Positions 1-64,000 are shown, numbered from the stretch's first letter. The stretch is DNA of 64,000 nt from Candidatus Aminicenantes bacterium (GCA_016927475.1 JAFGMO010000012.1:120875-184874); one strand, 5' to 3'. The notes: generated by a model not told the origin, from the letters alone. Translations and numbers: made by a program.

Positions 1-97
1 CGTCAAAAAAAAAGAGGCCTTTAGACTTATTCCCCTGGTCAAAAAAATGGGAGCGACCGACATCCTGGAATATGAATTCAGAAAGGTGATCTCATGA
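1..97 (+). CDS. hisG: ATP phosphoribosyltransferase, 3' end (partial, long-form C-terminal regulatory domain)
   Basis: The frame ending at TGA 95-97 translates as ...LIPLVKKMGATDILEYEFRKVIS*. This resembles the HisG long-form C-terminus (E. coli ...LMPKLKALGASSILVLPIEKMM). The stop overlaps the hisC ATG (ATGA) and the gene heads a his operon. Confidence 0.5.
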   Translation, partial: VKKKEAFRLIPLVKKMGATDILEYEFRKVIS

Positions 98-1155
98 ATA
101 CCGTTAAAAAATGTGTGGCAGGACTCAGCGAATATTCGGTTCTTCAAGATATGGGAGTGATAAAACTCAATCAGAATGAATCGCCCCGGGATATTCCACG
201 GGAGGTCAAACAAAAAATATTGTCACGGATGGAAACATTATCCTGGAACAGGTATCCTCCCGCTGTTCCGGATTCTCTTAAGGAAAGGCTTTCGGACTAC
301 ACCGGTTTTCCCTCCTCCGGAATATTAATCGGCAATGGTTCGAACGAGCTGATACAAACCCTGGTTTATGCCTTCTGTGATTCGGGAGACCGGGTGCTTG
401 TTATCCAACCGGGATTTTCAATATATGAACGAATAAGTGAAATCATGAATGTTTCCGTGGTGAAAGTTCCTCTTAAAAAAAATTTTTCCTTCGACGTGGA
501 GAGCTTGATTTGCGGAAGCCGTGATGTCCGGCTGATGATTGTGGCCTCTCCCAACAACCCGACCGGCACCCGGCTGACGGGAAAACAGGCCGAACAGCTT
601 CTGAAAGGCGTCTCATGTCCTGTCGTTATCGATGAGGCTTATTATGAATTTTCGGGTCAATCTTTCACCAAGTTCATCCAAAAGGGATTTCCTCTTTTTG
701 TGCTGCGAACATTTTCCAAAGCTTTTTGCCTGGCTGGGTTACGGCTGGGTTATGTTCTTGGCGCCGGAAAAAATATTCTCCAGTTGGGGAAAGCGAAGCT
801 TCCTTTTTCCGTGGATATTTTTTCCCAGATAGCCGGAGAAGTGCTGATGGAAAACCGTTCCTTTCTGGAGAGCAACCTTCGGGAAATCGTTCAGGAACGG
901 GAACGGGTGTATGCGGAACTCAAAAAATGTCCAGGAATTTCTCCCTATCGGTCCTCAGCCAATTTTATTTTATTCCGCTGTGAAGGAATGAAGGGGACAC
1001 AACTTTTTCGCAGGTTGTATGAACAGGGGATTCTTGTACGTTCCTTCCGTGAGGCCTGTTTGAGCGATATGCTTCGTGTGACGGTGGGGCGGGCCGAGGA
1101 AAACACGCTGTTTTTGGAAAAAATGGCGGATATCATGCAGGGAGGAAAAAAATGA
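94..1155 (+). CDS. hisC: histidinol-phosphate aminotransferase
   Basis: 353 aa with a class II aminotransferase fold and typical HisC N-terminal motifs (LNQNESP, RYP). It lies in his operon context. Confidence 0.9.
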   Translation: MNTVKKCVAGLSEYSVLQDMGVIKLNQNESPRDIPREVKQKILSRMETLSWNRYPPAVPDSLKERLSDYTGFPSSGILIGNGSNELIQTLVYAFCDSGDRVLVIQPGFSIYERISEIMNVSVVKVPLKKNFSFDVESLICGSRDVRLMIVASPNNPTGTRLTGKQAEQLLKGVSCPVVIDEAYYEFSGQSFTKFIQKGFPLFVLRTFSKAFCLAGLRLGYVLGAGKNILQLGKAKLPFSVDIFSQIAGEVLMENRSFLESNLREIVQERERVYAELKKCPGISPYRSSANFILFRCEGMKGTQLFRRLYEQGILVRSFREACLSDMLRVTVGRAEENTLFLEKMADIMQGGKK

Positions 1156-1826
1156 CGGCTGTGTTGTTCGATATGGATGGGGTATTGGTCGATGTGTCCC
1201 GTTCCTACCGGGAAGCTGTTCATCAAACCATTTTTCATTTCAGCGGACGTGATGTTTCGGACGAGGAGATCCAGTCCAACAAAAACAAGGGAGGATATAA
1301 CAATGACTGGGACTTGTCTCTGAAGCTCCTTCAGGACAGGGGGTTTAAACTTTCGAAAGGAGAGGTTGTCGATGCTTTTCAGAAAATATACCTCGGCCGG
1401 GATTTTAACGGCCTGATTCGAAACGAACGCTGGCTCCTGAAAAAAGATCTTTTAATGGCCATATGCCAAAGGTTTCCTACCGGTATTGTCACCGGCCGTC
1501 CCCGGAAAGAGACGGACTATGTCCTGAATAGATTTTCCGTAGATTCTTTTTTTCCCGTGGTAGTGACCATGGATGATGTGCCTCCGGGCAAGGATAAACC
1601 CGATCCTTACGGAATCCTTTTGGCCCTCCGGGCTTTGGAGGAACAACATGGTTTGTATTTCGGGGATACCGTGGACGATATGAAAGCCGCCCGTAAAGCC
1701 TCGTTGACACCGGTTGGGATTGCAAGGGAAGGGAAATCCCGCCGGGAACAAACCCGTATTCTTCGGGAGAGCGGAGCATCGGCGGTTCTTTCGGATATTA
1801 ATGATTTGATGGAGGTTTTACCGTGA
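1152..1826 (+). CDS. HAD-superfamily hydrolase, candidate histidinol-phosphate phosphatase
   Basis: The N-terminal DMDGVL motif is HAD motif I. The gene is translationally coupled (ATGA) between hisC and hisB. HisB here is the monofunctional dehydratase only, so a separate HolPase is expected. Confidence 0.6.
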   Translation: MTAVLFDMDGVLVDVSRSYREAVHQTIFHFSGRDVSDEEIQSNKNKGGYNNDWDLSLKLLQDRGFKLSKGEVVDAFQKIYLGRDFNGLIRNERWLLKKDLLMAICQRFPTGIVTGRPRKETDYVLNRFSVDSFFPVVVTMDDVPPGKDKPDPYGILLALRALEEQHGLYFGDTVDDMKAARKASLTPVGIAREGKSRREQTRILRESGASAVLSDINDLMEVLP

Positions 1827-2431
1827 GAAGGGAAGCGGAGGTAAAAAGAAAATCAAAAGAGACATCCGTTTCCGCCTCGGTCGTTCTTGAAGGATCGGGC
1901 CAGTATGTGATAAGGACTCCTATCGGATTTTTCAATCATATGATTGAATCGTTCGCCAAACACGGGTTATTTGATTTAACCTTGATAGCCGATGGGGATC
2001 TGAAAGTGGACCAACATCATCTCATTGAGGACTGCGGATTGGTTTTAGGCCGTGTTTTCAGCAAGGCGCTTGGGTCGAGAGAAGGAATCAACCGGGCCGG
2101 ATATTTTGTTTATCCCATGGATGAGGCTCTGGCCGTTGTGGCTGTGGATTTGAGCGGGCGTCCTTATCTGCAGTATGAAACCCGGTTTAAAAGAAGATAT
2201 TGCGGTGATCTGGATAACGATCTTTTGGAAGATTTTTTCCAGGCTTTTGCTATCCAATTGCGGGCTAACGTTGTGGTCCGCATGCCTTTCGGCCGAAGCG
2301 ATCATCACAAGATGGAAGCCGTGTTTAAAGCCTTGGGACGTTCGATGCGAATGGCCTGCTCCAAGGATATCCGGGAAGGAAAACAGGTGCCTAGTGTGAA
2401 AGGACTGATTGATGAAAATTGGAATCGTTGA
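1823..2431 (+). CDS. hisB: imidazoleglycerol-phosphate dehydratase
   Basis: 202 aa with IGPD motifs (HHLIED, DQHH-type metal ligands). Confidence 0.9.
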   Translation: MRREAEVKRKSKETSVSASVVLEGSGQYVIRTPIGFFNHMIESFAKHGLFDLTLIADGDLKVDQHHLIEDCGLVLGRVFSKALGSREGINRAGYFVYPMDEALAVVAVDLSGRPYLQYETRFKRRYCGDLDNDLLEDFFQAFAIQLRANVVVRMPFGRSDHHKMEAVFKALGRSMRMACSKDIREGKQVPSVKGLIDENWNR

Positions 2432-3014
2432 TTATGGAGCGGGAAACCTTCGTTCGGTACGGAATGCCTTTGATTATCTGGGTATGAAAAGTTTGATCGT
2501 TGATTCGCCGTCCCAATTGAAAGAATTGGATAAATTGGTCCTGCCGGGAGTCGGTGCTTTCGGGCACGCTGTGGGGAGGATGAGAGATGCCGGATTTTTT
2601 TCCCCCGTATATGACTGGCTGAAAGAGGACCGGCCCTTTTTGGGAATTTGCCTGGGATTTCAGATGTTGTTTGATTTAAGCGATGAGTCCCCGGATGAGA
2701 AGGGATTTGGTTTTTTTGAAGGAAGCTGCCGGCGGTTCCGGGAAAGGAAAGTTCCCCAGATCGGATGGAACGCCGTTCAAACCGGAGGAAACACGCTTCT
2801 TTTTGACGGGATTCCTTCCGGAGAACATTTTTACTTCGTTCACAGTTATTATGTTGCAGCCGGGGATGGCGGGATGGTTCTCGGCCGGACGGAATACGGC
2901 CTTTCTTATGTTTCTGTAGTGGGAAACGGACATGTTTTTGGGGTACAGTTTCATCCTGAAAAAAGCGGCGAGGCCGGTCTAACGCTTCTGGAGAACTGGG
3001 GGAAAAAATGCTGA
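2409..3014 (+). CDS. hisH: imidazole glycerol phosphate synthase, glutamine amidotransferase subunit
   Basis: N-terminal MKIGIVDYGAGNL and a class I GATase catalytic triad region (GICLGFQ). Confidence 0.9.
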   Translation: MMKIGIVDYGAGNLRSVRNAFDYLGMKSLIVDSPSQLKELDKLVLPGVGAFGHAVGRMRDAGFFSPVYDWLKEDRPFLGICLGFQMLFDLSDESPDEKGFGFFEGSCRRFRERKVPQIGWNAVQTGGNTLLFDGIPSGEHFYFVHSYYVAAGDGGMVLGRTEYGLSYVSVVGNGHVFGVQFHPEKSGEAGLTLLENWGKKC

Positions 3015-3760
3015 CTGTAAGGATCATTCCATGTCTCGATGTTGAGGACGGCCGGGTCGTCAAGGGAATACGTTTTACTGATTTACAGGAGGCCGGGGAT
3101 CCCGTGGACCTGGCGGCTGATTATAATGAACAAGGCGCCGATGAAATCGTTTTTCTTGATATAGGAGCTTCCTACCGGCGCCGGAAAACGATGGTTGATG
3201 TTGTCAATCAGGTTTCCCGTCGAGTTTTTGTTCCGTTGACTGCAGGCGGAGGGATTCGTTCCGTTGAGGACATGCGAATTCTTCTTCAGTCGGGAGCCGA
3301 TAAGGTGGCCGTCTGTTCGGCGGCCTTGAAAAGGCCCGGCCTGATTTCTGAAGGGGCTGAGGTCTTTGGATCGCAGTGCCTGGTTCTATCCATCGATGCC
3401 AAGCAGCACGGTGGAAGCTGGCGGGTTTATTCCCATGGAGGCCGTATCGATACGGGCCTGGATGTCTTGGAATGGGCCAGGCAAGGAGAAAAACTGGGGG
3501 CTGGTGAGATTCTGCTGAATTCCATCGACGCCGACGGGACACGGGAAGGATTTGATCTTGAGCTTACGCGCAAGGTGGGCGAAATCCTTTCCATTCCCGT
3601 GATCGCCTCGGGTGGGGCGGGAAGCCTGGCGCAGATTTATGCCGCTTTTTCTCAAGGGAAGGCGGATGCGGCCCTGTTGGCTTCCCTTTTCCATTTCAAG
3701 GAATATACGGTCAGAGATGTTAAAACTTATCTCAAGATGAAAGGAATCAGGGTTAGATGA
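3008..3760 (+). CDS. hisF: imidazole glycerol phosphate synthase, cyclase subunit
   Basis: Begins [14 protein letters not shown] and has a (beta/alpha)8 HisF signature. Confidence 0.9.
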
Positions 3761-5028
3761 TTATCCCTTCGATTGATCTTATGGAAGGACGCGCCGTACA
3801 ACTGGAGCAGGGAAGGAAAAAAGTCCTAGATGTCGAGTCCCCGGTGAGCCTGGCGGAGGATTTTTCCCGTTTTGGTGAGCTGGCCGTGATTGACCTGGAT
3901 GCTGCCCTTGGAAGAGGGACAAACGAGGAAACCATCAAGAAAATTTGCCGTGTGGGGGACTGCCGGGTTGGTGGAGGGATTCGTACTGTTCATGCGGCGG
4001 AAAAAATGTTTTCATTCGGAGCCCGCCGGATTATTGTCGGAACCCAAGCTTTTTGTGAAAAAGGGATAAACCGGCAGTTTCTCGGTCGGCTGCGGACTGC
4101 CGTCGGCAGAGAAAATATTATCGTAGCGCTTGATGCTGAACAGGGGAAGGTTGTCACTCAGGGCTGGCGAAAACGAATGCAGCTTGATGTCCTGGATGTT
4201 GTGCAAAATCTGGAAGAATATGCAGCCGAGGCCCTTTTTACCTGTGTCGAAAGGGAAGGGTTGATGCGGGGAACGGATATCGAAGCTGTGGAAAGGCTCA
4301 GGTCCGCGACAGGATTGAGATTGACGGCGGCCGGGGGAATATGCTCGGCCGGGGAGATAGCGCGTTTATCGCGGATGGAGGTCAACGTTCAACTGGGTAT
4401 GGCCCTCTACAGCGGAAAAATATCCATTGAGAAGGCTTTTATATCTTCTTTGAAATGGAAGGAAGGGCTTCTCCCGACGATCGTTTTGGATTCTTCTTCA
4501 CAGGTATTGATGCTTGCCTACAGCAGCCCGGAGTCTTTGAAAAAAATGTTTTCCACGGCTAAGCTCTGGTTGTATTCCCGTTCCCGAAGTTCTTTGTGGA
4601 TGAAAGGGGAATCTTCTGGAAATATGATGTCTTTTGTGGGCATTCGGACGGATTGCGACGGTGATTCTCTCCTTGTTTCTGTGGATCCGTCAGGTCCGGC
4701 ATGCCATACGAGGCGATATTCTTGTTTTTCTGACAAGCGGTTCAGCCTTAAGGAGCTTGAGTCCGTCATCCGGGAAAGGATGAAATCCTGTCCTTCAGGA
4801 TCGTACACGGCCTCATTAACCCGGGAAAAAGCGAAAGAAAAAATTCTGGAGGAAGCGGATGAGCTGATTGCGGCTGAACAACATGACGATATTATTTGGG
4901 AGGCGGCGGACCTGTTCTATTTCATCCTCGCTTATCTGGTGAAAAGCGGTATTTCCCTGGACTCCGTACTCCGGGAATTGGAGAGGAGAAGACGGATTTC
5001 ATCAAAAGAATATCTTTCCGAGGAGTAA
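3757..5028 (+). CDS. hisA-hisIE: fused ProFAR isomerase (HisA) / phosphoribosyl-AMP cyclohydrolase (HisI) / phosphoribosyl-ATP pyrophosphatase (HisE)
   Basis: The N-terminal ~235 aa are HisA (IIPSIDL..G..V). The middle has the HisI signature WLYSRSRSSLWMKGESSG...DCDGDSLL...GPACHT. The C-terminal part is a HisE-like helical MazG-type domain (DDIIWEAADLFYFIL). Confidence 0.85.
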   Translation: MIIPSIDLMEGRAVQLEQGRKKVLDVESPVSLAEDFSRFGELAVIDLDAALGRGTNEETIKKICRVGDCRVGGGIRTVHAAEKMFSFGARRIIVGTQAFCEKGINRQFLGRLRTAVGRENIIVALDAEQGKVVTQGWRKRMQLDVLDVVQNLEEYAAEALFTCVEREGLMRGTDIEAVERLRSATGLRLTAAGGICSAGEIARLSRMEVNVQLGMALYSGKISIEKAFISSLKWKEGLLPTIVLDSSSQVLMLAYSSPESLKKMFSTAKLWLYSRSRSSLWMKGESSGNMMSFVGIRTDCDGDSLLVSVDPSGPACHTRRYSCFSDKRFSLKELESVIRERMKSCPSGSYTASLTREKAKEKILEEADELIAAEQHDDIIWEAADLFYFILAYLVKSGISLDSVLRELERRRRISSKEYLSEE

Positions 5029-5031
5029 GTC

Positions 5032-6312
5032 ATGAAGCGTATACATCCTGATGAGTTTGATTGTATAAAATATCCTTTACTGAACACCCTTGAAAAGCGC
5101 CGGATTTTAAGGGTTTTAAAAGACGTAAAAAAAAAGGGAGACAAAGCGGTAAGGAAATGGACCCGGCGTTTTGACGGAACTGACACCTCAAACTTACAGG
5201 TGCCGGAAGCCGCGGTCAAAAAAGCTTTTTCCCGGATGGATAAAGAACTGCTGAGAGCTATGGATTTTGCCGCCCGTAATATCCTGTCTTTTGCGCAGAA
5301 GCAGTTGGAGATGTATAAAAGCTTTGACTGGAGTCCTCTTCCCGGTCTTGTGCTTGGGCAGAGAATTATTCCGTTGAAAAGAGTCGGTATTTATGTTCCG
5401 GGAGGGAGATACCCGCTGTTTTCATCTCTTCTTATGGGTGTCCTGCCGGCGGTTGCGGCGGGTGTGGAGGAAGTAACGGTCTGTACACCGCCGAATCATG
5501 ACGGGGATATTCATCCGGCCATTTTAGCCGCGGCTCGAATGGCCGGCGTCAAGGAAATATTTAAAGTGGGAGGAATCCAGGCTGTTGCCGCCCTTGCCTA
5601 TGGAACAGAGTCTATAAAAAGAGTGGACATGATTGTCGGGCCGGGTAATCGTTATGTAACGGCGGCGAAAAAATATGTTTTCGGAAAAGTCGGCATTGAT
5701 TTTATTGCGGGGCCTTCTGAGGTGATGATAGTAGCCGACCGGTCGGCTGACGCCGGATTCATAGCGGCTGATCTGATTGCTCAGGCTGAGCATGATGAAT
5801 ATGCCCGGCCCATCCTTGTGACGGATTCAAGAGAATTGGCTGACCGGGTTGATGAAGAGATAGCAGGCCAGTTGAGCATGATGCAGGAAACCCATGTAGC
5901 CCGGGCGGCCCTAAGGAATAACGGGCAAACCGTGCTCGTTGAAAATCTGAAACAAGCCTTGGATTTGGTCAATAGGGGAGCTCCGGAGCATTTGGAAATA
6001 CACCTTAAGAACGCAACGTCTTTTGCCGGGCGTGTGAGGAATTTCGGCTCTCTTTTTATCGGGAAATATTCGGCTGAAGTCCTTGGGGATTACAGCGCTG
6101 GAATCAACCACATCCTCCCGACAGGTATGTCAGCCCGCTATACAGGCGGCTTAAGTGTCGGACATTTTTTAAAAGTTCAGACCGTTATGCGTGCGAAAAA
6201 AAAAGGATTCCTGTCGGCCGGCCCCCCGGCCTTCAAGATGGCCGAGGCGGAGGGTTTGGAAGGACATACCCGGGCCGTTGCTTTGAGATTGAATCGGACC
6301 CGTTTATCCTAG
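5032..6312 (+). CDS. hisD: histidinol dehydrogenase
   Basis: 426 aa with the QAEHD motif and typical HisD length. It is the last gene of the his cluster. Confidence 0.9.
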   Translation: MKRIHPDEFDCIKYPLLNTLEKRRILRVLKDVKKKGDKAVRKWTRRFDGTDTSNLQVPEAAVKKAFSRMDKELLRAMDFAARNILSFAQKQLEMYKSFDWSPLPGLVLGQRIIPLKRVGIYVPGGRYPLFSSLLMGVLPAVAAGVEEVTVCTPPNHDGDIHPAILAAARMAGVKEIFKVGGIQAVAALAYGTESIKRVDMIVGPGNRYVTAAKKYVFGKVGIDFIAGPSEVMIVADRSADAGFIAADLIAQAEHDEYARPILVTDSRELADRVDEEIAGQLSMMQETHVARAALRNNGQTVLVENLKQALDLVNRGAPEHLEIHLKNATSFAGRVRNFGSLFIGKYSAEVLGDYSAGINHILPTGMSARYTGGLSVGHFLKVQTVMRAKKKGFLSAGPPAFKMAEAEGLEGHTRAVALRLNRTRLS

Positions 6313-55049: not shown

Positions 55050-56813
55050 ATGTTAAACAAGGAGGATGTTATGAAGGGCAAGCGGACTTTTATCCTATGT
55101 TTGGTTTTTTTGCTTGTGGCCGCCGGTATCTGTCAGGACCAGGATATTTTTGAAGCCATTGTCAAAGGCGACCTGACCACGGTTAAATCTCTTTTAGAAA
55201 AAGATCCCGGACTTTTGATGGCCAAAGGCAGAAACGGAGTCACACCCCTCCATATTGCTGCATTTGAGGGGCAACTGGAGATCGTCAAGATGCTTTGTGA
55301 AAAGGGGGCCGATGTTCGGGCCGGAGACACTCAGCTAGGAACTCCCCTTCATTATGCCGCTTATAATGGCCAGGACGCGGTGGTCGGTTTTTTGATCGAC
55401 CGGGGTGTTGATGTCGACATCAAAAACGAAAGCGGAGCAACACCTCTTTTTTTGGCTGTTAACCGGGGGAAGAAGAGCACGGCCGACCTGCTCATTTCCC
55501 GCGGGTCGGACATCAATGCCATGGATTCCATTGGCTACAGTGCACTGCGCATCGCCTGCATACGGAATAATGGAGAAATGGTCCAGTTTCTTGCTGACAA
55601 AGGGGCCAGAATCAACCAGCGTTTAGATGCCGGGAATACGCTTCTTCATGAGTCCGCTGCCGAAGGGCGGAAAGAGATCATGGAGATTTTTATCGCCCGG
55701 GGATTGGATGTTGAGGTTAAAAATAAAGCTGGACAAACGCCGCTTCATTTGGCGGCTTTTTACGGACAAAAAGACTGTGCGGCTTTTCTCATCGAGAAAG
55801 GTGCGGACATCAGCCTTCAGGATGGAGCCGGAGATACCCCTCTTCACGGGGCTGCATGGGGAGGGCATAAAGCCGTCGTTGAGCTTTTGGTATCCGGGGG
55901 AGCCGATCTCGTGGTTCAAAATGCGGAGGGACGAACAGCTCTTGATTGTGCTTCGGCCAATGGGAAAAAAGAGACGGCAGATTTCATGCGGGCAGCCGGA
56001 GCCCAGGGGGCGGCCGGTTTGTGGGAGGAAAAGGCATTCGCCAAAGTCAAGCAAGCACAGGGCAAGGGATTAAAAAGTCCCCTGAAATTCACCATACTCT
56101 ATGACAATTATGTTTCCCGGGAAGGGACAAAGTCCGATTGGGGTTTTTCCTGTCTTATCGAGGGCGCAGAAAAAACCATCCTCTTCGATACGGGAACTCG
56201 AAGCGATATACTCTGGCACAACATCAAGGAGGTGGATGTTGATGCGAGCAGGGTGGATCAGATCGTTATCTCCCATATCCACCTCGATCACACGGGCGGC
56301 TTGTTCTCCGTGCTGGAAAAACATCACGATGTTGAGGTTTATCTGCCCCATACTTTTCCTTATGATTTTTTCCGCAGGGTTGATAAAAGCGGAGCTCGAA
56401 GCCAACCGGTCAACCAACCCGTGCAGATCTGTGAAAATGTCTATTCAACCGGAGAGATGGGAGACCGGATCAAAGAGCAGTCTTTGATCATCAACACGCA
56501 GAAAGGCTTGATCATTGTCACCGGCTGTTCCCATCAGGGAATCGTCAACATTCTCGACAGGGCCCGGGAGATGTTCGACAGTCCCATTTACCTTGTGTTC
56601 GGCGGATTCCATCTCGGAGGAACGCCCAGGGCCGAACTGGAAAAAATCGTTCAAAGCTTCAAGGATAAAGGGGTTGTGAAATGCGGAGCCACTCACTGTA
56701 CTGGGGATGAAGCCATCGGTATGTTCAAGGAAGCCTATGGAGAAAATTATGTTTCCTTGGGAACGGGAAGGGTTCTGGAAATCGAGACGGCCGAAGAAAA
56801 AAGCGAAAAATAA
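55050..56813 (+). CDS. secreted ankyrin-repeat protein fused to a metallo-beta-lactamase-fold (COG1237-type) domain
   Basis: A signal peptide and about 8 ankyrin repeats (G.TPLH.AA..G). The C-terminal part has HIHLDHTGG (HxHxDH) plus downstream His/Asp ligands. Confidence 0.7.
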   Translation: MLNKEDVMKGKRTFILCLVFLLVAAGICQDQDIFEAIVKGDLTTVKSLLEKDPGLLMAKGRNGVTPLHIAAFEGQLEIVKMLCEKGADVRAGDTQLGTPLHYAAYNGQDAVVGFLIDRGVDVDIKNESGATPLFLAVNRGKKSTADLLISRGSDINAMDSIGYSALRIACIRNNGEMVQFLADKGARINQRLDAGNTLLHESAAEGRKEIMEIFIARGLDVEVKNKAGQTPLHLAAFYGQKDCAAFLIEKGADISLQDGAGDTPLHGAAWGGHKAVVELLVSGGADLVVQNAEGRTALDCASANGKKETADFMRAAGAQGAAGLWEEKAFAKVKQAQGKGLKSPLKFTILYDNYVSREGTKSDWGFSCLIEGAEKTILFDTGTRSDILWHNIKEVDVDASRVDQIVISHIHLDHTGGLFSVLEKHHDVEVYLPHTFPYDFFRRVDKSGARSQPVNQPVQICENVYSTGEMGDRIKEQSLIINTQKGLIIVTGCSHQGIVNILDRAREMFDSPIYLVFGGFHLGGTPRAELEKIVQSFKDKGVVKCGATHCTGDEAIGMFKEAYGENYVSLGTGRVLEIETAEEKSEK

Positions 56814-56901: not shown

Positions 56902-57915
56902 TCAGTAAGATTCTTTTTCCTCTTCGATTTTTCCTCTAAAAACTCGGTAAAGATAGACCGTAATACCGATAACCACCGGCATGCCTAGGATGGCGATGAT
57001 AAGCATCACCTTGAGGGTCAGTTCGCTGGAACTGGCGTTGGTGGCCATCAGGCTGAGGGAAAGGTCGTTGGAAGCGCGCACGAGATAGGGGTAATGGACG
57101 GAACCGGCGATACCCCAAAGCCCCAAAAAGGCCGTTGACGAGGCACCGAAAACCCATCCTTCCCGGCTTTTTTTCAAACCGGCAAGCAGGAATCCCAAAG
57201 AAACGAGAATAAGAACGGTGAAAATCCAGGCCGTTGGTTTGGATGCGGCTCCCGGCAGATAAACCAGGCCTAGAAGGAAACAAAGGATAAGCAGGGCGGT
57301 ATATATCCAAAGGAGAGTGACGGAGAACCGGCCGGCCCTTATTTTGAGGGGGCCCTCGTTTTTTAAAAAGGCAAAGGTTGTTCCTTGAAGAAGAATGGCG
57401 GCACATCCCAGCAGGCCTACGGCAAGGGGAAACGGGCGAATCAGGGTTAAGAAGTTTCCGATGAAATCCATGTTTTCGTTGAGAGGTATGCCGACTAAGA
57501 CATTGCCCAGGGCGACACCGAAAAACAGAGCCGGCAGAAAGCTCCCCAGGGTGAAGGCCCATTCCCAGATTTTTTTTCTCCTGGGGTCATGGGCCCTGAA
57601 TTCGAGGGAAACGGCCCTGAAAATAAGGGAAAAAAGAACGAGCATCAGGGCCAGATAAAATCCGCTGAAAACCGTAGCGTACGCCTGGGGAAATGCGGCG
57701 AAAAGGGCTCCGCCTGCGGTTAATAGCCAGACTTCGTTGCCGTCCCAGAATGGCCCGATGGTTGAAACGAGCTTCTCTTTTTCTTCTTCGTTCCCGGCCA
57801 AAAAAGGAAAAAGCGTTCCGATGCCCAGGTCAAACCCGTCAAGGATGGAATATCCCGCCAGGAGAACACCGATAAGAACAAACCAGATATTTTGTAGAAG
57901 GTTCCAGGTATTCAT
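56902..57915 (-). CDS. cydB: cytochrome bd ubiquinol oxidase subunit II
   Basis: Begins MNTWNLLQNIWFVLIGVLLAGYSILDGFDLGIG and has 8-9 TM helices. The start is set at the internal ATG at 57915, overlapping the cydA stop (ATGA). The longer ORF-track N-terminus is out-of-frame overlap with cydA. Confidence 0.85.
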   Translation of the reverse strand: MNTWNLLQNIWFVLIGVLLAGYSILDGFDLGIGTLFPFLAGNEEEKEKLVSTIGPFWDGNEVWLLTAGGALFAAFPQAYATVFSGFYLALMLVLFSLIFRAVSLEFRAHDPRRKKIWEWAFTLGSFLPALFFGVALGNVLVGIPLNENMDFIGNFLTLIRPFPLAVGLLGCAAILLQGTTFAFLKNEGPLKIRAGRFSVTLLWIYTALLILCFLLGLVYLPGAASKPTAWIFTVLILVSLGFLLAGLKKSREGWVFGASSTAFLGLWGIAGSVHYPYLVRASNDLSLSLMATNASSSELTLKVMLIIAILGMPVVIGITVYLYRVFRGKIEEEKESY

Positions 57916-59249
57916 GGTCTGCCTCCTTCTTGGTTTTTTTCCAGTTCCTGCAGACCTTTTCTGATGAGTTTTAAAATGACCATCAGACCCACGGCGCCGA
58001 TGAGAGCGTAAACGAGAATAAACAATATTAGGGTGAGAAGAATATTTCCTGAAGGCACCACGGGTGAGACGGCATCCGCCGTGCGCAGAATCCTGTAGAC
58101 GGCCCAAGGCTGCCGTCCGACCTCGGCCGCGATCCAGCCCCATTCGTTGGCCAGGTAGGGCAGAGGAAGGGCCAGGAGGAGGGATCGAAGAAACCATTTG
58201 GTTTGGTGAGTTTTTTTGCGGACCAGAAGATAAATACCAACCAGGGAAAGACCGATGAACACCATTCCGAAGAGAATCATGAGGTGATAGGAGACAAAGG
58301 GAAGAAAGACCGGCGGCTGTTCGTCGGCGGGAAAGACGTCGAGTCCTGTAACCTCGGCCTCGGGATCAAAGTGAATGAGCAGGCTGAGAAGTTTGGGGAC
58401 CTCGACGAGGAGATGGGTTTTTTGGTTCTGTTTGTCGGGAAAGCCGAAGAGTGCCATGGGCGCGCCTTTTTGGGTTTCCCAGAGGGCTTCGAAAGCAGCC
58501 ATTTTTTCCGGTTGTGTTTCGGCGACCTTAACCGAATGGGCGTGCCCCGAACCGAGCTGAAGAAGGGAGGCGGCGATGAACACAATAAGCGATAAGCGCA
58601 GGATGATTCGGGCCGGGATCAGATGCCTTTTTTTGAGAATATACCAAGCGGAGATGGCGGCGGCGAAAAGGGAGCCGGTAATCCAACCGGCCAGAACGAC
58701 GTGAAGATAACGGACCATGGTGGAAGGATTCAAGGCGGCCTGAAAAAAATTCGTCAGGACGGCCTTGGTTCCTTCCATGCGAAAGCCGGCCGGAGTCTGC
58801 ATCCATGAATTGGCGATGATGATCCACAATCCGGATAGGTGCGAGGCGAAAAAGACCAGGAAAGCGGAAAACCAGTACATTTTTTGGGAGACCTTTTTTC
58901 GCCCGAAGATCAGAATACCCAGGAATACGGATTCCAGGAAAAAGGAAAAAATGCCTTCCGCTGCCAACGGGGCGCCGAAAATGTCGCCGACGGTCCGGGA
59001 ATATTCCGACCAGTTATTGCCGAAGGCGAACTCCAGGACGATTCCCGTGGCCACTCCCAAGACAAAAACAATGCCGAGAAGTTTGATTAGAAAGGATGAT
59101 ATTCTTCGGTAGAGGTCGTCCTTTGTCTTCAGGTAGAGCGATTCGACCAAAAGGATGATGAACGTCAGCCCAAAGGTCGTCGGAGGAAAAAGAAAATGGA
59201 ATCCTGCTGTGAAGCCGAATTGGATTCTGGCGAGAAGAACGGCATCCAT
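57912..59249 (-). CDS. cydA: cytochrome bd ubiquinol oxidase subunit I
   Basis: Begins MDAVLLARIQFGFTAGFHFLFPPTTFGL and has a Q-loop region. 445 aa. Confidence 0.9.
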   Translation of the reverse strand: MDAVLLARIQFGFTAGFHFLFPPTTFGLTFIILLVESLYLKTKDDLYRRISSFLIKLLGIVFVLGVATGIVLEFAFGNNWSEYSRTVGDIFGAPLAAEGIFSFFLESVFLGILIFGRKKVSQKMYWFSAFLVFFASHLSGLWIIIANSWMQTPAGFRMEGTKAVLTNFFQAALNPSTMVRYLHVVLAGWITGSLFAAAISAWYILKKRHLIPARIILRLSLIVFIAASLLQLGSGHAHSVKVAETQPEKMAAFEALWETQKGAPMALFGFPDKQNQKTHLLVEVPKLLSLLIHFDPEAEVTGLDVFPADEQPPVFLPFVSYHLMILFGMVFIGLSLVGIYLLVRKKTHQTKWFLRSLLLALPLPYLANEWGWIAAEVGRQPWAVYRILRTADAVSPVVPSGNILLTLILFILVYALIGAVGLMVILKLIRKGLQELEKNQEGGRP

Positions 59250-59660
59250 ACCCAGCCTCCCTTTTTTTTAAAATCAATATTTCGTTCGTTAAAATCTGCT
59301 TTTATTTTACCAAGTTCTCTCTTGCCAAATTCTTTTGTAATAAAAGCAAATAAAAAAAATATAAAAATACCAGTAATAATTATAAATATAATACAAAAAA
59401 TATTTTTTGTATTTTTTTGTTATTTTCAGGGGGCATTTTTGCTCCTTTTTGCCGGATACCATATCAGACTCGACAGTTTTTGCTTTTCAAACAAAAAATA
59501 ATAATGTTTTGAAATGTTGTCAATAATGTTGCAAAAAATGTTGTTGAGACTGAATTTGTTAGTATGAATTATCTTAATTTTGGGATGCAAATTTCATTAA
59601 ATTTAGGTAAAATAATAAAATAAGCATTATCCAAAAGTCATTAAAGGGAGGAGTATGGTT

Positions 59661-60644
59661 ATGAAAAAGAAAAAAAATGTCTTTAAGTCTGTCGTTTGGT
59701 GGTTAACAAAACCTGCTAAATGGAGGGAAACAATAGAGACGCTTGCTGAAAAAGAAATCAAATTAGGGGTCGTTATATTTGTATTTGTCTGTCTTGTTGT
59801 ATTCTCGTCTACATTTTTGATGGGGAGAACATATGACAGATCTCACCTGTATAATATCCTTGTAGAAGCTCATGGATTAGTTTTTGATATCTTTGTTTTT
59901 GGCATAATCGTAATGATTTTTAATAAATTTGCGGAGAGAAGACGGAATATTCTGAGGTGGATAGAAGAAATTGATGATTACAAAGGTTGGGATGAAAAAG
60001 AAGCTATGTACAGGATTGTTGGAAATATTAAAAGATTGAACAGAGAAAAAGTTACGAGGATTAATTTACATGATTGTTTTTTAGAAAAAGCCAACCTCAG
60101 TGGACTCAATCTCCAAAAAACCCATTTTGAGAATGCACATCTCGATTTTGCCAATCTCAGGTTTGCCAGTCTGATGAAAGCCAATCTCGAAGGAGCCCAT
60201 CTCAAGGGAGCTCATCTTGTAGGAGCCAATCTTGAGAAAGCAAATCTCTGGGAAGTCGATTTCATGGGAGCCGAACTATTCGCAGCAAACCTCGTTGGAG
60301 CCCATCTTAGTGGAGCTCGTCTCAAGGGGGCATGTTTAGCAGTGACCAATCTTGCGGGTACTGTTTTCTGGAGAGCAGATCTTGAGGGTGTCGATCTCGG
60401 GTCTGCCCATCTCGTGGGAGCCGACCTATTCGAAGCAAATCTCGGTCGAGTAAATTTCGATCGAGCAAATCTCGATCGAGTAAATCTCGAGGGAGCTAAT
60501 CTCACTGGAGCAAAAAATCTTACACTTAATCAACTATCAAAGGTTGAAACATTATATAAAGCAAAACTCGATCCAGAGCTTTTAGCTGAAGTGAAGCAAA
60601 AGTATCCGCATCTTTTGGAAAATCATAAACCTGAGAAGAAATGA
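59661..60644 (+). CDS. membrane-anchored pentapeptide-repeat protein (copy 1)
   Basis: Two N-terminal TM helices and a conserved ~60-aa juxtamembrane domain (EAHGLVFDIFVFG...WDEKEAMYRIVGNIKRLN). About 45 pentapeptide units (A(N/D)L.G) follow. RBS agggaggag. The gene lies in a ~30% GC region. Confidence 0.7.
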   Translation: MKKKKNVFKSVVWWLTKPAKWRETIETLAEKEIKLGVVIFVFVCLVVFSSTFLMGRTYDRSHLYNILVEAHGLVFDIFVFGIIVMIFNKFAERRRNILRWIEEIDDYKGWDEKEAMYRIVGNIKRLNREKVTRINLHDCFLEKANLSGLNLQKTHFENAHLDFANLRFASLMKANLEGAHLKGAHLVGANLEKANLWEVDFMGAELFAANLVGAHLSGARLKGACLAVTNLAGTVFWRADLEGVDLGSAHLVGADLFEANLGRVNFDRANLDRVNLEGANLTGAKNLTLNQLSKVETLYKAKLDPELLAEVKQKYPHLLENHKPEKK

Positions 60645-60791
60645 GGTAGTTATTTCAATATTCCTGCTTTTCTTTTCAACAGATCCTCTCCCCTAAATTC
60701 TAACTTCCTATGATGTAAATCCCGCCTAATTCAGTTAAAATAACAAATTCAGCATTATCCAAAATTCATTAAAGGGAGGAGTATTGTTGTG

Positions 60792-61643
60792 ATGAATAAA
60801 ATCTCAAAAATTATTAAATCTATCGGCCAGGGGATAATTAAGTTTTTAAAGTTGTTGTGGGGAATGATAGAGAGACTGGCAGAAAAAGAAGTTTTTTTGG
60901 GACTCATACTTCTGATAATTATTGGGTTTTTTGTTATATATCTAACTTTACATGCTGGAAACAAATACAAAGATACTTTCTTGAATAACATTTTTATTGA
61001 AGCTCACGGACTTGTGTTTGACATCTTCGTTTTTGGTGTGATTGTCATAATTTTTGATAAGATCGCAGAAAGACGACGGAATATTAAAAGATGGAAAGAA
61101 GGAATTGACGACTTTAGAGGTTGGGATGAAAAAGAAGCTATGTACAGGATTGTTGGAAATATTAAAAGATTGAACAAAGAAAAAGTAACCGAGATTGATT
61201 TAAATCTTTGTTTTTTAGAAAAGGCCGATCTAAGTTGGACTGATCTTAGGGGGGGGGATCTCGAGAGGGCCAATCTCATTGGAGCTAATCTCATTGGAGC
61301 CGATCTTAGGGGAGCCATTCTAATTGGAGCCGATCTCAGTTGGACTGATCTTAGGGGGGGGAATCTCGAGGGAGCCGTTCTCATTGGAGCTAATCTCATT
61401 GGAGCTAATCTTAAGGAGGCTAATCTCGAGGAGGCTAATCTCATTGGAGCCGATCTTAGGGGAGTAAAGAAGCTAACAATTGATCAACTATCAAGAGTTA
61501 AGACTTTATTTAGGGTAGAAAACCTTGATCCTGGATTTAGAGCTGAAGTGAAGGAGAAGTATCCGCAGCTTTTTAGAGAGGCCTATGTGGATATATTAGA
61601 TAAAAGGCGATTGAGGGCCAGGGATCCCGCCCCCCGAGATTGA
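60792..61643 (+). CDS. membrane-anchored pentapeptide-repeat protein (copy 2, tandem paralog)
   Basis: Same N-terminal architecture and a duplicated leader/RBS. The repeat region is more regular (LIGANLIGADLRGA...) and carries an internal ~100-bp duplication and two in-frame poly-G tracts. Confidence 0.7.
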   Translation: MNKISKIIKSIGQGIIKFLKLLWGMIERLAEKEVFLGLILLIIIGFFVIYLTLHAGNKYKDTFLNNIFIEAHGLVFDIFVFGVIVIIFDKIAERRRNIKRWKEGIDDFRGWDEKEAMYRIVGNIKRLNKEKVTEIDLNLCFLEKADLSWTDLRGGDLERANLIGANLIGADLRGAILIGADLSWTDLRGGNLEGAVLIGANLIGANLKEANLEEANLIGADLRGVKKLTIDQLSRVKTLFRVENLDPGFRAEVKEKYPQLFREAYVDILDKRRLRARDPAPRD

Positions 61644-61737
61644 AATGATCGCTGTGCGGTTATGCGCCTCATTTGGTAGACGTGGGGATGGTGGGAATAT
61701 TCTCATTTTAAATTCTATCTGGCACATAGCTAAATTA

Positions 61738-62754
61738 TTAAAAATTGGCAACTGGTATAGAAGTTGAATTGATAATTCTATTAATTTTTTCTTCCAAATA
61801 TTGTGGCTCTGTATAGGGAGGTTTTACTACCTTTTGAAAAAGATTTAAGAATTGCCTGTCAGCAATTCCCCTAAATAGTTCATTTCTCTTTGCTGAATAG
61901 TCAATTAAAGAGTTTTTTATATCCATAAATTCAGAATAACAAATAGTTATTGCTTCCTCCTCGATGTTTTTTGCAAACTCTCTTACCTTGTTTTCTATAT
62001 TTTCATTAATAGGGGGCTTAATATCTTTTATCTTTTCAAGAATTGTTTTGATATTTTCTAGTTTTTTTTTGTCTTCGTCGTAGGCGTTAATTAGATTGGT
62101 TATTTTTCTGTCGAGCTCTTTTTTGATTATTTGCCTTTTCTTAAGGGCTTTTGTTTCTTTGAAAATATACCTTCGATTAATACAATCAACTTTTATAATT
62201 GATAAAAAATTTTGCTTTCTTAAGTTGCTGTATCTGATTTTCAGCAAATAACTAGATATTTTTTCAGCTGTCTCGCGTCTAAGAAATGGAAGATCAAGTT
62301 TTATTTTTTCAGTAATAGTTGCAACAGATTTTGCATCTCTGTTTTTAAATAAGATATGGAGATCTTGTTTAAAAAATTGTATAAAATCCCCGGACTTTAG
62401 TGGAACATAAGAATTAAATTGAAGATAGTAAAGATTGCTTTCAACTGTTTCTATTTCAATATTCAATGCAGCACTCTCACCAATATTTTTTAAAATCATT
62501 GAAAGAGGTTCTACACCGATTATTACACAAGGCCTCAACATCAAATCTGTTTGTGTTGCAGTGGCTTTTTTAAGTCTATTGGTTTCCCATGCATACCACC
62601 AAATCGCAAGGAACGTTAAAAATAAAATAAAAGTTGAAACAATTTGGAGCTGAATAGGAATTTTTGCTCCAGAAAATATACAACTTAGTTTATATAAAAA
62701 AACATCAAATATCATAACCCCTCCATTAGATTCTTGTTGAAAAGCATTAACCAA
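61738..62754 (-). CDS. hypothetical membrane-anchored protein (unknown function)
   Basis: 338-aa ORF with one N-terminal TM helix (IQLQIVSTFILFLTFLAIWWYAW) and a Lys/Glu-rich helical C-terminal region. AT-rich. No recognisable motif. Confidence 0.45.
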   Translation of the reverse strand: MVNAFQQESNGGVMIFDVFLYKLSCIFSGAKIPIQLQIVSTFILFLTFLAIWWYAWETNRLKKATATQTDLMLRPCVIIGVEPLSMILKNIGESAALNIEIETVESNLYYLQFNSYVPLKSGDFIQFFKQDLHILFKNRDAKSVATITEKIKLDLPFLRRETAEKISSYLLKIRYSNLRKQNFLSIIKVDCINRRYIFKETKALKKRQIIKKELDRKITNLINAYDEDKKKLENIKTILEKIKDIKPPINENIENKVREFAKNIEEEAITICYSEFMDIKNSLIDYSAKRNELFRGIADRQFLNLFQKVVKPPYTEPQYLEEKINRIINSTSIPVANF

Positions 62755-62868
62755 GCCTCCTGCCGGAATTATTCTACCAAAACCAGGCTATTTCAGGAAG
62801 GGATTGTCTTTACTAGGGGAGGGGAGGCTGGTAAAATGTTTGTATCAGCATATAAGGAGATTTTATAT

Positions 62869-63444
62869 ATGTCAAAAGGAAAGGTAAAAATAATCTTTTG
62901 GTGGCTAAGTCCATTTGTTGCCATAATTTCTCTAATCAATTTCCTTTTTTTTGATAATAGAATATTTAAGTTTATCTGGGAAAAAATTATTGTGTATTTA
63001 TGTAATTTAGATTTACCAGATTTAGTTTTTATAATTGCAATTCTAGTAATATTCTTTTTTTTGTGTGTGTTAAATAGAAAAATAAAAAGTGAAATGATTT
63101 CATTTAAAAAAGATTTCAATGAAATCAAACGACATCCTACTGAAGAAATGAAAGTCATCTTGGAAAGAATCATGAAAGCAAAAAATTGTAAAGCTAATGA
63201 AACATATTTACAAAGAGAATTTATAAAAAAATTTAATTTAGAAAATAAAGATAAACATGTTTTTTGGCAAAGATATAATGAAAATATAAGAAAATTAAAA
63301 AATATCCAAGCAATAGAAGAAACAGGAAGTCTTGACACTGAAATTTATTTGACAATTAGAAGCCCCTTTGGAGATATCCTTTATAATGAATGGGGATTAA
63401 ATATATCCTTGAAAGAAAATATTGAGAAGGGGAGGCGAGAATGA
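62869..63444 (+). CDS. hypothetical small membrane protein (unknown function)
   Basis: The start is set at ATG 62869, which has an aaggag RBS. There are two TM helices and then a soluble Lys-rich domain. It is divergent from the preceding gene. Confidence 0.4.
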   Translation: MSKGKVKIIFWWLSPFVAIISLINFLFFDNRIFKFIWEKIIVYLCNLDLPDLVFIIAILVIFFFLCVLNRKIKSEMISFKKDFNEIKRHPTEEMKVILERIMKAKNCKANETYLQREFIKKFNLENKDKHVFWQRYNENIRKLKNIQAIEETGSLDTEIYLTIRSPFGDILYNEWGLNISLKENIEKGRRE

Positions 63445-64000
63445 AAGATAATAAAATAGAAATTACTATACTCGAGAAGGATAAAAATGAAAAAATCCAG
63501 GAGATGAAAAGAATAATAGACGAAATTGAAAAAGTACCGATTGATGAGTTAATTCAAGAAAAAGAATTGGGAACATATAATTTTAAGGAGCAAAAACCTG
63601 TTTTTGAATACATCAAAAATATATTTGAGGATATTAAAAACCTTAGTTACAAAGATATTCCTCTGAAAAAATTGGAAGAGCTTTCAACTGCAGCAAATGA
63701 TTGCAGGAAACTGTTCAAAACAGTAACTGATTTCAGAATTAATTATACTGAAGAACAAAGGAGAATAAAGGGCGATGAGATTCTTTCTTTTGAAAAACGA
63801 TTGTTTGACCTTGTAATACCAATACTTGTCCATTTGTCGGGGGCAGAGGTGTTAAGGAGGGTAAATCTAGCATATAAGAGAATCCAATCACGATATGATG
63901 AAGCTAGAGAATGTGTTGTAGAAATAAAAAAAATAAAAGAATCTTCACAAATAGCTGCAAGAGAGATGGGGGTAACAACTCAGGCAAATTATTTTGAAAG
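63441..64000 (+). CDS. hypothetical coiled-coil protein (partial, continues past window end)
   Basis: The ATG overlaps the upstream stop (ATGA). The open frame runs to the window edge and is Lys/Glu-rich and helical. It is not in the ORF track because it is incomplete. Confidence 0.4.
   Translation, partial: MKDNKIEITILEKDKNEKIQEMKRIIDEIEKVPIDELIQEKELGTYNFKEQKPVFEYIKNIFEDIKNLSYKDIPLKKLEELSTAANDCRKLFKTVTDFRINYTEEQRRIKGDEILSFEKRLFDLVIPILVHLSGAEVLRRVNLAYKRIQSRYDEARECVVEIKKIKESSQIAAREMGVTTQANYFE

Follow-up and report, generated by a model that had tools for sequence, protein, structure and literature searches.

What are the proteins encoded by two adjacent genes that each join a membrane segment to an array of pentapeptide repeats, how long have they stood side by side, and what might they do? 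The pair lies on the + strand of a 64,000-nucleotide (nt) stretch of DNA from a Candidatus Aminicenantes bacterium (GCA_016927475.1 JAFGMO010000012.1:120875-184874), the whole of which we call the window. Copy 1 occupies 59661..60644 (327 aa from the ATG at 59661, approximately 30 repeats) and copy 2 occupies 60789..61643 (284 aa from the GTG at 60789 or 283 aa from the ATG at 60792, approximately 18 repeats), and both products are anchored by two transmembrane (TM) helices. This is an old tandem pair that has since been remodelled, each protein being built from a membrane hairpin and a variable rod, and we propose that the role of these proteins is an accessory one of the conflict or immunity type. 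We lean modestly towards this account as a whole and hold its mechanistic part, where function can only be inferred, with low confidence.

The two proteins are paralogues, with 45% identity overall (BLASTP, E 8e-73). Read from the alignments, identity is approximately 31% over aa 31-65, the TM1 region, and approximately 81% over aa 66-133, which hold TM2, the stalk and the cap. At the nucleotide level a 254-nt block (59848-60101 versus 60982-61235) is 81% identical, the C-terminal tails (60560-60616 versus 61517-61573) are 79% identical and the leaders (59584-59673 versus 60712-60801) 80% identical, the latter with a 33-nt core, AGCATTATCCAAAA[G/T]TCATTAAAGGGAGGAGTAT, in which a single mismatch separates the copies. 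The original prediction, made from the DNA alone, had described a tandem duplication that took in the leader, a pair of hydrophobic helices with a conserved juxtamembrane domain after them, and divergent repeat arrays. All of this is borne out, the duplicated unit by the comparisons just given and the helices and domain by hydropathy, structure models and family conservation, while the leader and N-terminal similarities on which the prediction had staked itself are both present in a self-comparison of the region. That both proteins belong to the pentapeptide-repeat superfamily is clear from their matches to Pfam Pentapeptide (PF00805), 117.1 bits for copy 1 and 101.8 bits for copy 2 against a cut-off of 20.2, and from the approximately 30 and 18 repeats found in register, the superfamily being defined by at least 8 contiguous A(D/N)LXX repeats above threshold. 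Nothing but pentapeptide families was found by Pfam in either protein (the libraries used throughout were the 2025 copy of Pfam, NCBIfam release 20.0 of June 2026 and PADLOC-DB 2.0). An assembly artefact, which had been raised as a possible objection, is excluded because the copies are too divergent for a collapsed or duplicated assembly and because an independent Logan contig (L072) matches the window at 100% over 58785-61065, from cydA through copy 1 to the start of copy 2.

On the sequence comparisons, the gene duplication is old and not recent. Nei-Gojobori counts between copy 1 and copy 2 give a proportion of synonymous differences (pS) of 0.72 over aa 31-65 and 0.78 over aa 66-108, both at saturation. 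Over the N-terminal domain, copy 2 shares 75% identity with P0015, a protein encoded on contig L068, and only 61% with copy 1; neighbour-joining trees with 300 bootstraps join copy 2 to P0015 as its sister in 99% of replicates and to copy 1 in 0%. Contig L068 is collinear with the window from the tail of copy 1 through the gene downstream of the pair, and presents in the same order a copy-1 counterpart (5'-truncated and frameshifted, with the same ...KPEKK* end), the intergenic region with its leader, and a copy-2 counterpart. The presence of the same pair there implies that the tandem arrangement predates the split of the two loci. Among close metagenome relatives sought to date the duplication the best match was 54% identical, and L068 was found instead through the search of representatives. 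The pair had been supposed to result from recent unequal crossing-over, with only the arrays diverging since, and this reading can call on the single difference in 33 leader bases, on a 59-nt exact match between the copies and on an internal duplication of 105 nt at 90% identity in the array of copy 2. Set against it are the saturated pS, the low protein identity of the TM1 region, the greater nearness of copy 2 to P0015 than to copy 1, the failure of the copies to emerge as sisters in any replicate and the same pair on L068, by which the reading is already contradicted, and we regard it as highly improbable.

The L068 locus differs in its upstream part (1-3650). The membrane module is missing from the frameshifted copy-1 counterpart, and directly upstream of it, where the window has cydA, lie a D12-class DNA methyltransferase and a 757-aa open reading frame (ORF) without a Pfam match. 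The arrangement resembles either an insertion of the restriction-modification type or the breakpoint of a rearrangement.

An old duplication has to be reconciled with the 59-nt exact match. In the segment around GWDEKEAMYRIVGNIKRLN the pS between the copies is 0.15, and here 59984..60042 (+) of copy 1 is identical to 61118-61176 of copy 2, the longest exact block that the two have in common. The two copies on L068 differ inside this tract, so that its identity in the window does not reflect an absolute constraint on the nucleotides. The tract is best explained as the product of a later gene conversion between the copies, and the near-identity of the leaders may be due to conversion or to constraint.

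The repeat arrays have a history of their own. That of copy 1 (60060..60515, +) is heterogeneous and histidine-rich (7 H), has an isoelectric point (pI) of 5.75 and contains a 30-nt tandem repeat at 60434-60503 (+; 2.3 copies, 87%, Tandem Repeats Finder, TRF), while that of copy 2 (61194..61465, +) is very regular (ANLIG/ADLRG) and acidic, with a pI of 4.24, and contains no histidine. The internal duplication that had been predicted within the copy 2 array is present at 61224..61413 (+) as a tandem with a period of 105 nt, equal to seven pentapeptides (1.8 copies, 90% matches, TRF score 324), and a repeat search gives 82% ungapped identity between 61224-61328 and 61329-61433. This duplication is recent and could have arisen by slippage or by unequal crossing-over inside the array; the claim that unequal crossing-over took place recently stands for the copy 2 array and falls for the gene pair. 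Between the window and L068, nucleotide identity is 84% for the copy 1 C-terminal tail, 90% for the intergenic region and leader, which form the best conserved segment of the locus, 77% for the copy 2 N-terminal domain, 56% for the copy 2 array, 63% for the copy 2 C-terminal tail and 67% for the downstream gene. With 56% against 77-90% in its flanks, the array diverges faster than the neighbouring non-coding DNA. No Rfam family or stable fold accounts for the 90% conservation of the intergenic segment (60645-60788 versus L068 4226-4371). We also observe that the copy 2 array (61194-61465) is nearer to the copy-1-type array of L068 (3762-4090; 70% over 267 nt, 107 bits) than to its own positional counterpart there (4777-5040; 34 bits). 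An exchange of arrays between paralogues may have taken place, or equally both arrays may lie close to the repeat consensus, and we treat the similarity as a lead only.

What has been kept, in contrast to the arrays, is the membrane module. From its N-terminus each protein comprises an amphipathic helix, TM1, an outer loop of approximately 12 aa, TM2 running on into a stalk, a cap, a right-handed pentapeptide beta-helix and a helical tail. TM1 of copy 1 (59757..59825, +; approximately aa 35-57) has a Kyte-Doolittle 19-residue peak of 2.74, coincides with an AlphaFold2 (AF2) helix at 32-54 (numbered from 59661) and is poorly conserved across the family, its column conservation being low. TM2 lies at 59853..59921 (+; approximately aa 67-89, hydropathy peak 2.19) in copy 1 and at 60987..61055 (+; hydropathy peak 2.36, AF2 helix 61-107) in copy 2, and both copies carry in it the motif EAHGLVFDIFVFG, which reads E71-A-H73-G74-x-x-F77-D78-x4-G83 in copy 1 and E-A-H-G-L-V-F-D-x4-G in copy 2. 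Across 229 unique domains of the family the conservation of this motif is 98% at E71, 76% at H73, 99% at G74, 80% at F77, 97% at D78 and 98% at G83. The cytoplasmic stalk and cap helix of copy 1 (KFAERRRNILRWIEEIDDYKGWDEKEAMYRIVGNIKRLNREKVT; 59922..60056, +) are likewise nearly invariant in the same 229 domains (R101 90%, E105 95%, I106 96%, D108 99%, W112 99%, E116 96%, A117 99%, R120 94%, G123 97%, R127 100%, L128 99%), and in both copies the motif R..EEIDD..GW..EA..RIVG.I.RLN is followed at once by the pentapeptide array. At 100 degrees per residue E71, G74 and D78 fall on one helical face, with D78 near mid-span, and we infer that this acidic stripe of TM2 is functional and not a passive anchor.

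The AF2 models of the two copies share one architecture, an N-terminal helix, TM1, a TM2-stalk helix, a cap helix, a beta-helix and C-terminal helices. The model of copy 1 (predicted local distance difference test, pLDDT, 81.8; predicted template modelling score, pTM, 0.74) has two low-confidence stretches in the beta-helix and shows TM2 and the stalk as one continuous helix (60-106), followed by the cap helix (113-128) and then the first beta rung, while that of copy 2 (pLDDT 89.5, pTM 0.78) has 19 regular rungs at pLDDT 97-98. With one beta rung per 5 residues, AF2 predicts the repeat-five-residues (Rfr) fold, and Foldseek matches the models to solved pentapeptide structures with E down to 1e-6, namely QnrB1, MfpA, HetL, AlbG and synthetic solenoids, all of them pentapeptide-repeat structures and all aligned to the beta-helix only. 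The C-terminal tail of copy 1 (NLTLNQLSKVETLYKAKLDPELLAEVKQKYPHLLENHKPEKK; 60516..60644, +), whose counterpart in the copy-1 remnant of L068 was compared above, belongs to the type LTxxQLSxVxTLYxAKLDPEL...KYPHLL, a subfamily marker found in approximately 10-16% of the family. Directly upstream of a family member on another contig (L007, 2450-4243) we observe a 597-aa protein, not itself a member, in which multiple TM helices stand between two pentapeptide arrays. It ends in the same tail, LTIEQLSKV..LDP..KYPHLL, which indicates that the tail is a separable module.

The search for homologues that share the N-terminal domain, which the original prediction had recommended, uncovers a large family. 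Queried with the N-terminal 140 aa, a word-indexed search returned only 14 proteins, whereas an exhaustive search with a profile built from 12 N-terminal domains, by which we define the family, returned 1,246 representative clusters (at 50% identity) at E<=1e-3, 985 of them at <=1e-10; copy 1 and copy 2 themselves match the profile with E 8e-50 and 5e-49 (hmmsearch). The module is always seen with its repeats, as a pentapeptide signal follows it in every one of the 215 members whose C-region reaches 80 aa or more, and no fusion of the module to other domains was found among these 215. The C-region measures 93-210 aa (10th-90th percentile) and is net acidic in 66% of members, with a median pI of 5.6. 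Genome matches fall in Bacteroidota (Saprospiraceae, Flexithrix, Rhodothermales, Salinibacter) and elsewhere in Anaerolineae, Roseibium, Thalassovita, Brocadia, Eubacteriales and Acidobacteriota, and the source names are only 'pentapeptide repeat-containing' or 'hypothetical'. The claim that the architecture is uncharacterised is upheld for the N-terminal module: a Pfam scan of 12 members at E<=10 gives only scattered chance matches, all NCBIfam matches are repeat-based and below their cut-offs, a profile search of PDB sequences has a best E of 1.2, PADLOC holds no model for it, no sequence relationship to MotB/ExbD/TolR-like families emerges from Pfam at E<=10, and a literature search found no description of a 2-TM module joined to pentapeptide repeats.

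The gene is usually monocistronic and its neighbours are variable. An all-against-all BLAST of the neighbours yielded no conserved operon partner, only paralogue-rich families, integrases and PrimPol/DnaB. Individual members occur on an integrase/PrimPol-DnaB/ParA element, next to AIPR and TIR genes, next to the D12 methyltransferase of L068, on a conjugative Sinorhizobium (S. fredii) plasmid (pSF83666d, WP_037433987.1), where repABC and a DUF4238 gene are neighbours, and on a Chondrinema (C. litorale, WP_284688359.1) plasmid beside a DnaB-like helicase. Tandem sets recur, with two copies on L019 and three on L064 and L065. In L064 (3947-6553), a metagenome contig, and likewise in L065, the three tandem family genes have different arrays; those of L064 end in a distinct C-terminal tail, GWF.KLE.WN...EKY.IDENG, and its copies 2 and 3 have a similar leader of approximately 120 nt, an independent parallel to the pair in the window.

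What the rod could bind depends on the side of the membrane on which it lies, and here the alternatives begin to matter. Averaged over 205 members, lysine and arginine residues number 4.7 in the N-tail, drop to 1.2 in the 12-aa loop and rise to 5.3 across the 16 columns that follow TM2. This charge distribution argues, together with hydropathy peaks above 2.1 for both helices, for an N-in/C-in topology in which the beta-helix would be held in the cytoplasm at a constant distance beneath the membrane. Two conserved acidic residues and a histidine are unusual for a membrane span, and TM2 might for this reason not cross the membrane at all, leaving a single-pass N-in/C-out protein with a periplasmic rod; given its hydropathy peak of 2.2-2.4 over 19 residues, the step in positive charge from the loop to the region after TM2, the helical hairpin modelled by AF2 in both copies and the lack of a signal peptidase site or lipobox, we consider such an arrangement very unlikely. 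The original prediction had set the pair apart from the cytoplasmic Qnr/MfpA type, and this we revise, as the proteins are membrane-anchored yet their beta-helix is predicted, from the charge distribution, to be cytoplasmic like that of Qnr and MfpA. A cytoplasmic rod of this fold in turn raises the prospect of a membrane-tethered DNA mimic of the Qnr/MfpA/AlbG/McbG type that binds gyrase or topoisomerase IV, either protecting them from a toxin or regulating them, with the hairpin serving only to localise it. The Foldseek matches to QnrB1, MfpA and AlbG (E 1e-4 to 1e-2), the acidic arrays and the predicted location all suit it, as do the precedents of MfpA, a mimic of the T-segment (PMC7980463), and of several pentapeptide-repeat proteins that are immunity factors against gyrase poisons (reviewed in PMC8145042). 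The curated models do not bear it out, however, as the pair scores 46.7 bits (copy 1) and 26.6 bits (copy 2) against the Qnr cut-off of 240 (NF033086) and 39.9 and 31.3 bits against the cut-off of 360 for MfpA (NF000349), a soluble protein of approximately 183 aa, where the pair possesses the 2-TM module. Furthermore, an array that ranges from approximately 90 to more than 210 aa and is hypervariable fits the geometry of one target poorly, no gyrase or toxin genes are nearby, and a mere anchor leaves the invariant E, H and D within the membrane unexplained. We therefore rate a gyrase mimic as unlikely.

Another possibility is a structural protein of the envelope that organises a membrane or septal complex, in the manner of a scaffold, with the array acting as a rigid spacer and not as a recognition surface. 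The precedent is HglK of Anabaena/Nostoc PCC 7120, the only characterised bacterial membrane pentapeptide-repeat protein, whose repeat domain is needed at the septal membrane (PMC8145042), and an array of variable length could act as a ruler. The family nonetheless has a patchy distribution, is often carried by mobile elements and occurs in multiple copies, unlike a housekeeping scaffold; no conserved partner genes were found; and two TM helices and a short stalk take the place of the four TM helices and approximately 500 aa that precede the repeats in HglK. We find a scaffold quite unlikely.

We return to the old, remodelled pair of hairpin-and-rod proteins. A tandem duplication that took in the leader occurred long ago, and since then the arrays have been remodelled through repeat slippage or unequal crossing-over and at least one short tract (59 nt) has been homogenised between the copies. 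For the mechanism we propose that the variable beta-helix would present a recognition surface that binds a protein; as most arrays are acidic, it might do so by mimicking DNA. The membrane hairpin, which is invariant, would be more than an anchor: a mid-membrane Asp (97%) and a Glu (98%) on one helical face suggest an oligomer interface that may bind or conduct a cation or proton. Binding by the rod could then be coupled to an event in the membrane, or the bound partner could simply be held there, and the two copies would represent two specificities. Genes that stand alone, are patchily distributed, are sometimes borne on plasmids or other elements and recur as tandem paralogues with different arrays fit an accessory role in conflict or immunity; the low G+C content of the tract around the pair also suits an accessory character, and the role is probably of this accessory, conflict-related kind. 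A bolder version, in which the module, with its Glu/His/Asp stripe inside the membrane, is an oligomerising, ion- or proton-conducting output and the hypervariable rod its sensor, would make the family a hitherto unrecognised and widespread class of membrane immune or immunity proteins, encoded by single genes and directed against phage, mobile elements or toxins; we regard it as doubtful at this stage, and if true, tandem paralogues such as this pair would broaden the range of recognised targets.

Several observations weigh against the account that we favour. Its historical part is affected by the clade of copy 1, copy 2 and P0015, which is recovered in only 46-53% of bootstraps, and by the origin of L068 and L072 in the same sequencing run (SRR13394437), as L068 may come from a related population, or may be another locus of the same genome and not an orthologue. 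If it came from the same genome the dating of the duplication would be lost, while the argument for its old age survives. The fast divergence of the array may just reflect the instability of repeats under weak constraint and not diversifying selection, and the idea of a pore or ion site comes down to the conservation pattern and helical periodicity. With regard to a conflict role, PADLOC gives no match at E<=0.01 for either copy or for two downstream ORFs. In 148 flanking proteins from approximately 50 loci the commonest are FtsX/MacB and histidine kinases, both ordinary families rich in paralogues, PADLOC matches are sparse, and no enrichment was seen against Pfam or PADLOC. A phage origin was considered and rejected, with 0 matches in 50,697 phage records and 3 IMG/VR contigs only.

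How the two genes are expressed is suggested by the leaders. The 327-aa product of copy 1 is an exact match to NCBI MBN1271214.1, a 'pentapeptide repeat-containing protein' from Candidatus Aminicenantes; an alternative start at ATG 59655 would give a 329-aa ORF (59655-60644). For copy 2 no exact match to the product of either start was found in the protein collection. Look-ups of the exact products of cydA and of the 325-aa and 191-aa ORFs, aimed at the context past the end of the window, likewise gave none. A strong Shine-Dalgarno sequence, GGGAGGAG, lies at 59646-59653 before copy 1 and at 60774-60781 before copy 2 (both +), and its position favours ATG 59661 for copy 1 and GTG 60789 or ATG 60792 for copy 2. 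The copy 1 leader (59584..59654, +) contains the conserved 5' stretch AGCATTATCCAAAAGTCATTAAAGGGAGGAGTAT and a -10-like TAAAAT at 59608-59613 (+), recognised by inspection and not listed by the promoter consensus scan. The intergenic region and copy 2 leader (60645..60788, +) contain the anti-Shine-Dalgarno-like element CCTCTCCCCT, a -10-like TAAAAT at 60736-60741 (+) and the Shine-Dalgarno site, so that each gene has both elements of its own. No intrinsic terminator was found between the two genes. A regulatory RNA in the common leader was considered and rejected, as Rfam at permissive thresholds gave no relevant match, and the leaders fold no better than shuffled sequences (z -0.2 for the intergenic region and copy 2 leader, z -1.3 for the copy 1 leader). 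As a separate observation, CCTCTCCCCT at 60685-60694 is complementary to the copy 2 Shine-Dalgarno sequence AGGGAGGAG (60773-60781). The pairing appears in both single-sequence and alignment folds of the region, the z of -0.2 applying to the fold as a whole; both elements are conserved in L068, and copy 1 has no equivalent upstream. Since the putative promoter of copy 2 lies downstream of the element, only transcripts that read through from copy 1 would carry it, and on these it could silence the translation of copy 2.

The pair directly adjoins cydAB (- strand, 56902-59249) in a region that carries chromosomal genes, secA, uvrB, uvrC and similar. It sits in a tract of low G+C content (28-39% versus approximately 47% elsewhere in the window) that spans 59250-64000, beginning at the start codon of cydA and running off the end of the window. 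Three further ORFs share this tract, at 61738-62754 (-), 62869-63444 (+, MBN1271217.1) and from 63441 onward (+), of which the former two begin with hydrophobic stretches; none of the three has a Pfam, NCBIfam or PADLOC match. On the other side of the pair, 55050-56813 encodes an ankyrin-repeat protein whose residues 198-279 are weakly similar to MzaA, the sigma-70-type factor of the anti-phage system MZA (122 bits; cut-off 800). The cydB ORF as mechanically called (56902-58197) has an N-terminal extension of approximately 96 aa that overlaps the end of cydA, and its true start is probably the methionine of MNTWNLL... near 57909 because the TIGR00203 match starts at residue 98.

The family merits attention on several grounds. 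Very few pentapeptide-repeat proteins have a known biochemical function (PMC8145042), and here is a family of more than 1,000 clusters at 50% identity that extends over at least six phyla and whose membrane module is sharply conserved. The opposition of an invariant intramembrane acidic motif and a freely varying rod amounts to a hypothesis that is open to mutation, and members in cultured strains, among them Flexithrix dorotheae DSM 6795 and Roseibium marinum DSM 17023, and on sequenced plasmids make such experiments feasible. The pair in the window furthermore illustrates how paralogues evolve, combining an old duplication, a conserved leader, at least one putative gene-conversion patch and arrays whose turnover outpaces that of the non-coding DNA beside them.

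Finally, these proteins can be placed among known systems. The pentapeptide-repeat kind is already known, and what is new is a distinct, conserved N-terminal membrane module for which we found neither model nor description. With Qnr, MfpA and AlbG (McbG) the pair shares the right-handed quadrilateral beta-helix, the A(D/N)LXX repeat and the acidic surface, as well as a helical element at the C-terminus and a location predicted to be cytoplasmic, but those proteins are without the 2-TM module and stalk, the scores of the pair are 5-10 times under their NCBIfam cut-offs, and its arrays are hypervariable in length and sequence and found outside any gyrase or toxin context. The cyanobacterial proteins HetL and Alr5209 have a similar repeat type and are the best-scoring curated models for the pair, with 86.7 and 65.6 bits for copies 1 and 2 against a cut-off of 260 for HetL (NF047416) and 86.6 and 76.3 bits against 125 for Alr5209 (NF052603), scores that lie below both cut-offs; the two proteins are soluble and without the N-terminal module. 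Compared by description, HglK is likewise an integral membrane protein with a C-terminal pentapeptide array, yet it has four predicted TM helices and 727 aa with 36 repeats from residue 501 (PMC8145042), where the pair has two TM helices and repeats from residue 136, after a conserved cap. A TM-pentapeptide protein of the Bacteroidota Min-Wnt operon, also compared by description, stands in a conflict or immunity context, and Bacteroidota are rich in the present family as well; that protein shares an operon with Min-Wnt and two secreted glycosyl hydrolases, whereas the present family has no conserved neighbours. The luminal domain of SV2A/B/C, part of a eukaryotic 12-TM protein of the major facilitator superfamily, is non-cytoplasmic and gives no significant Foldseek match (E 4), but it too is a pentapeptide beta-helix attached to a membrane, and in SV2 it serves as a protein-binding surface.

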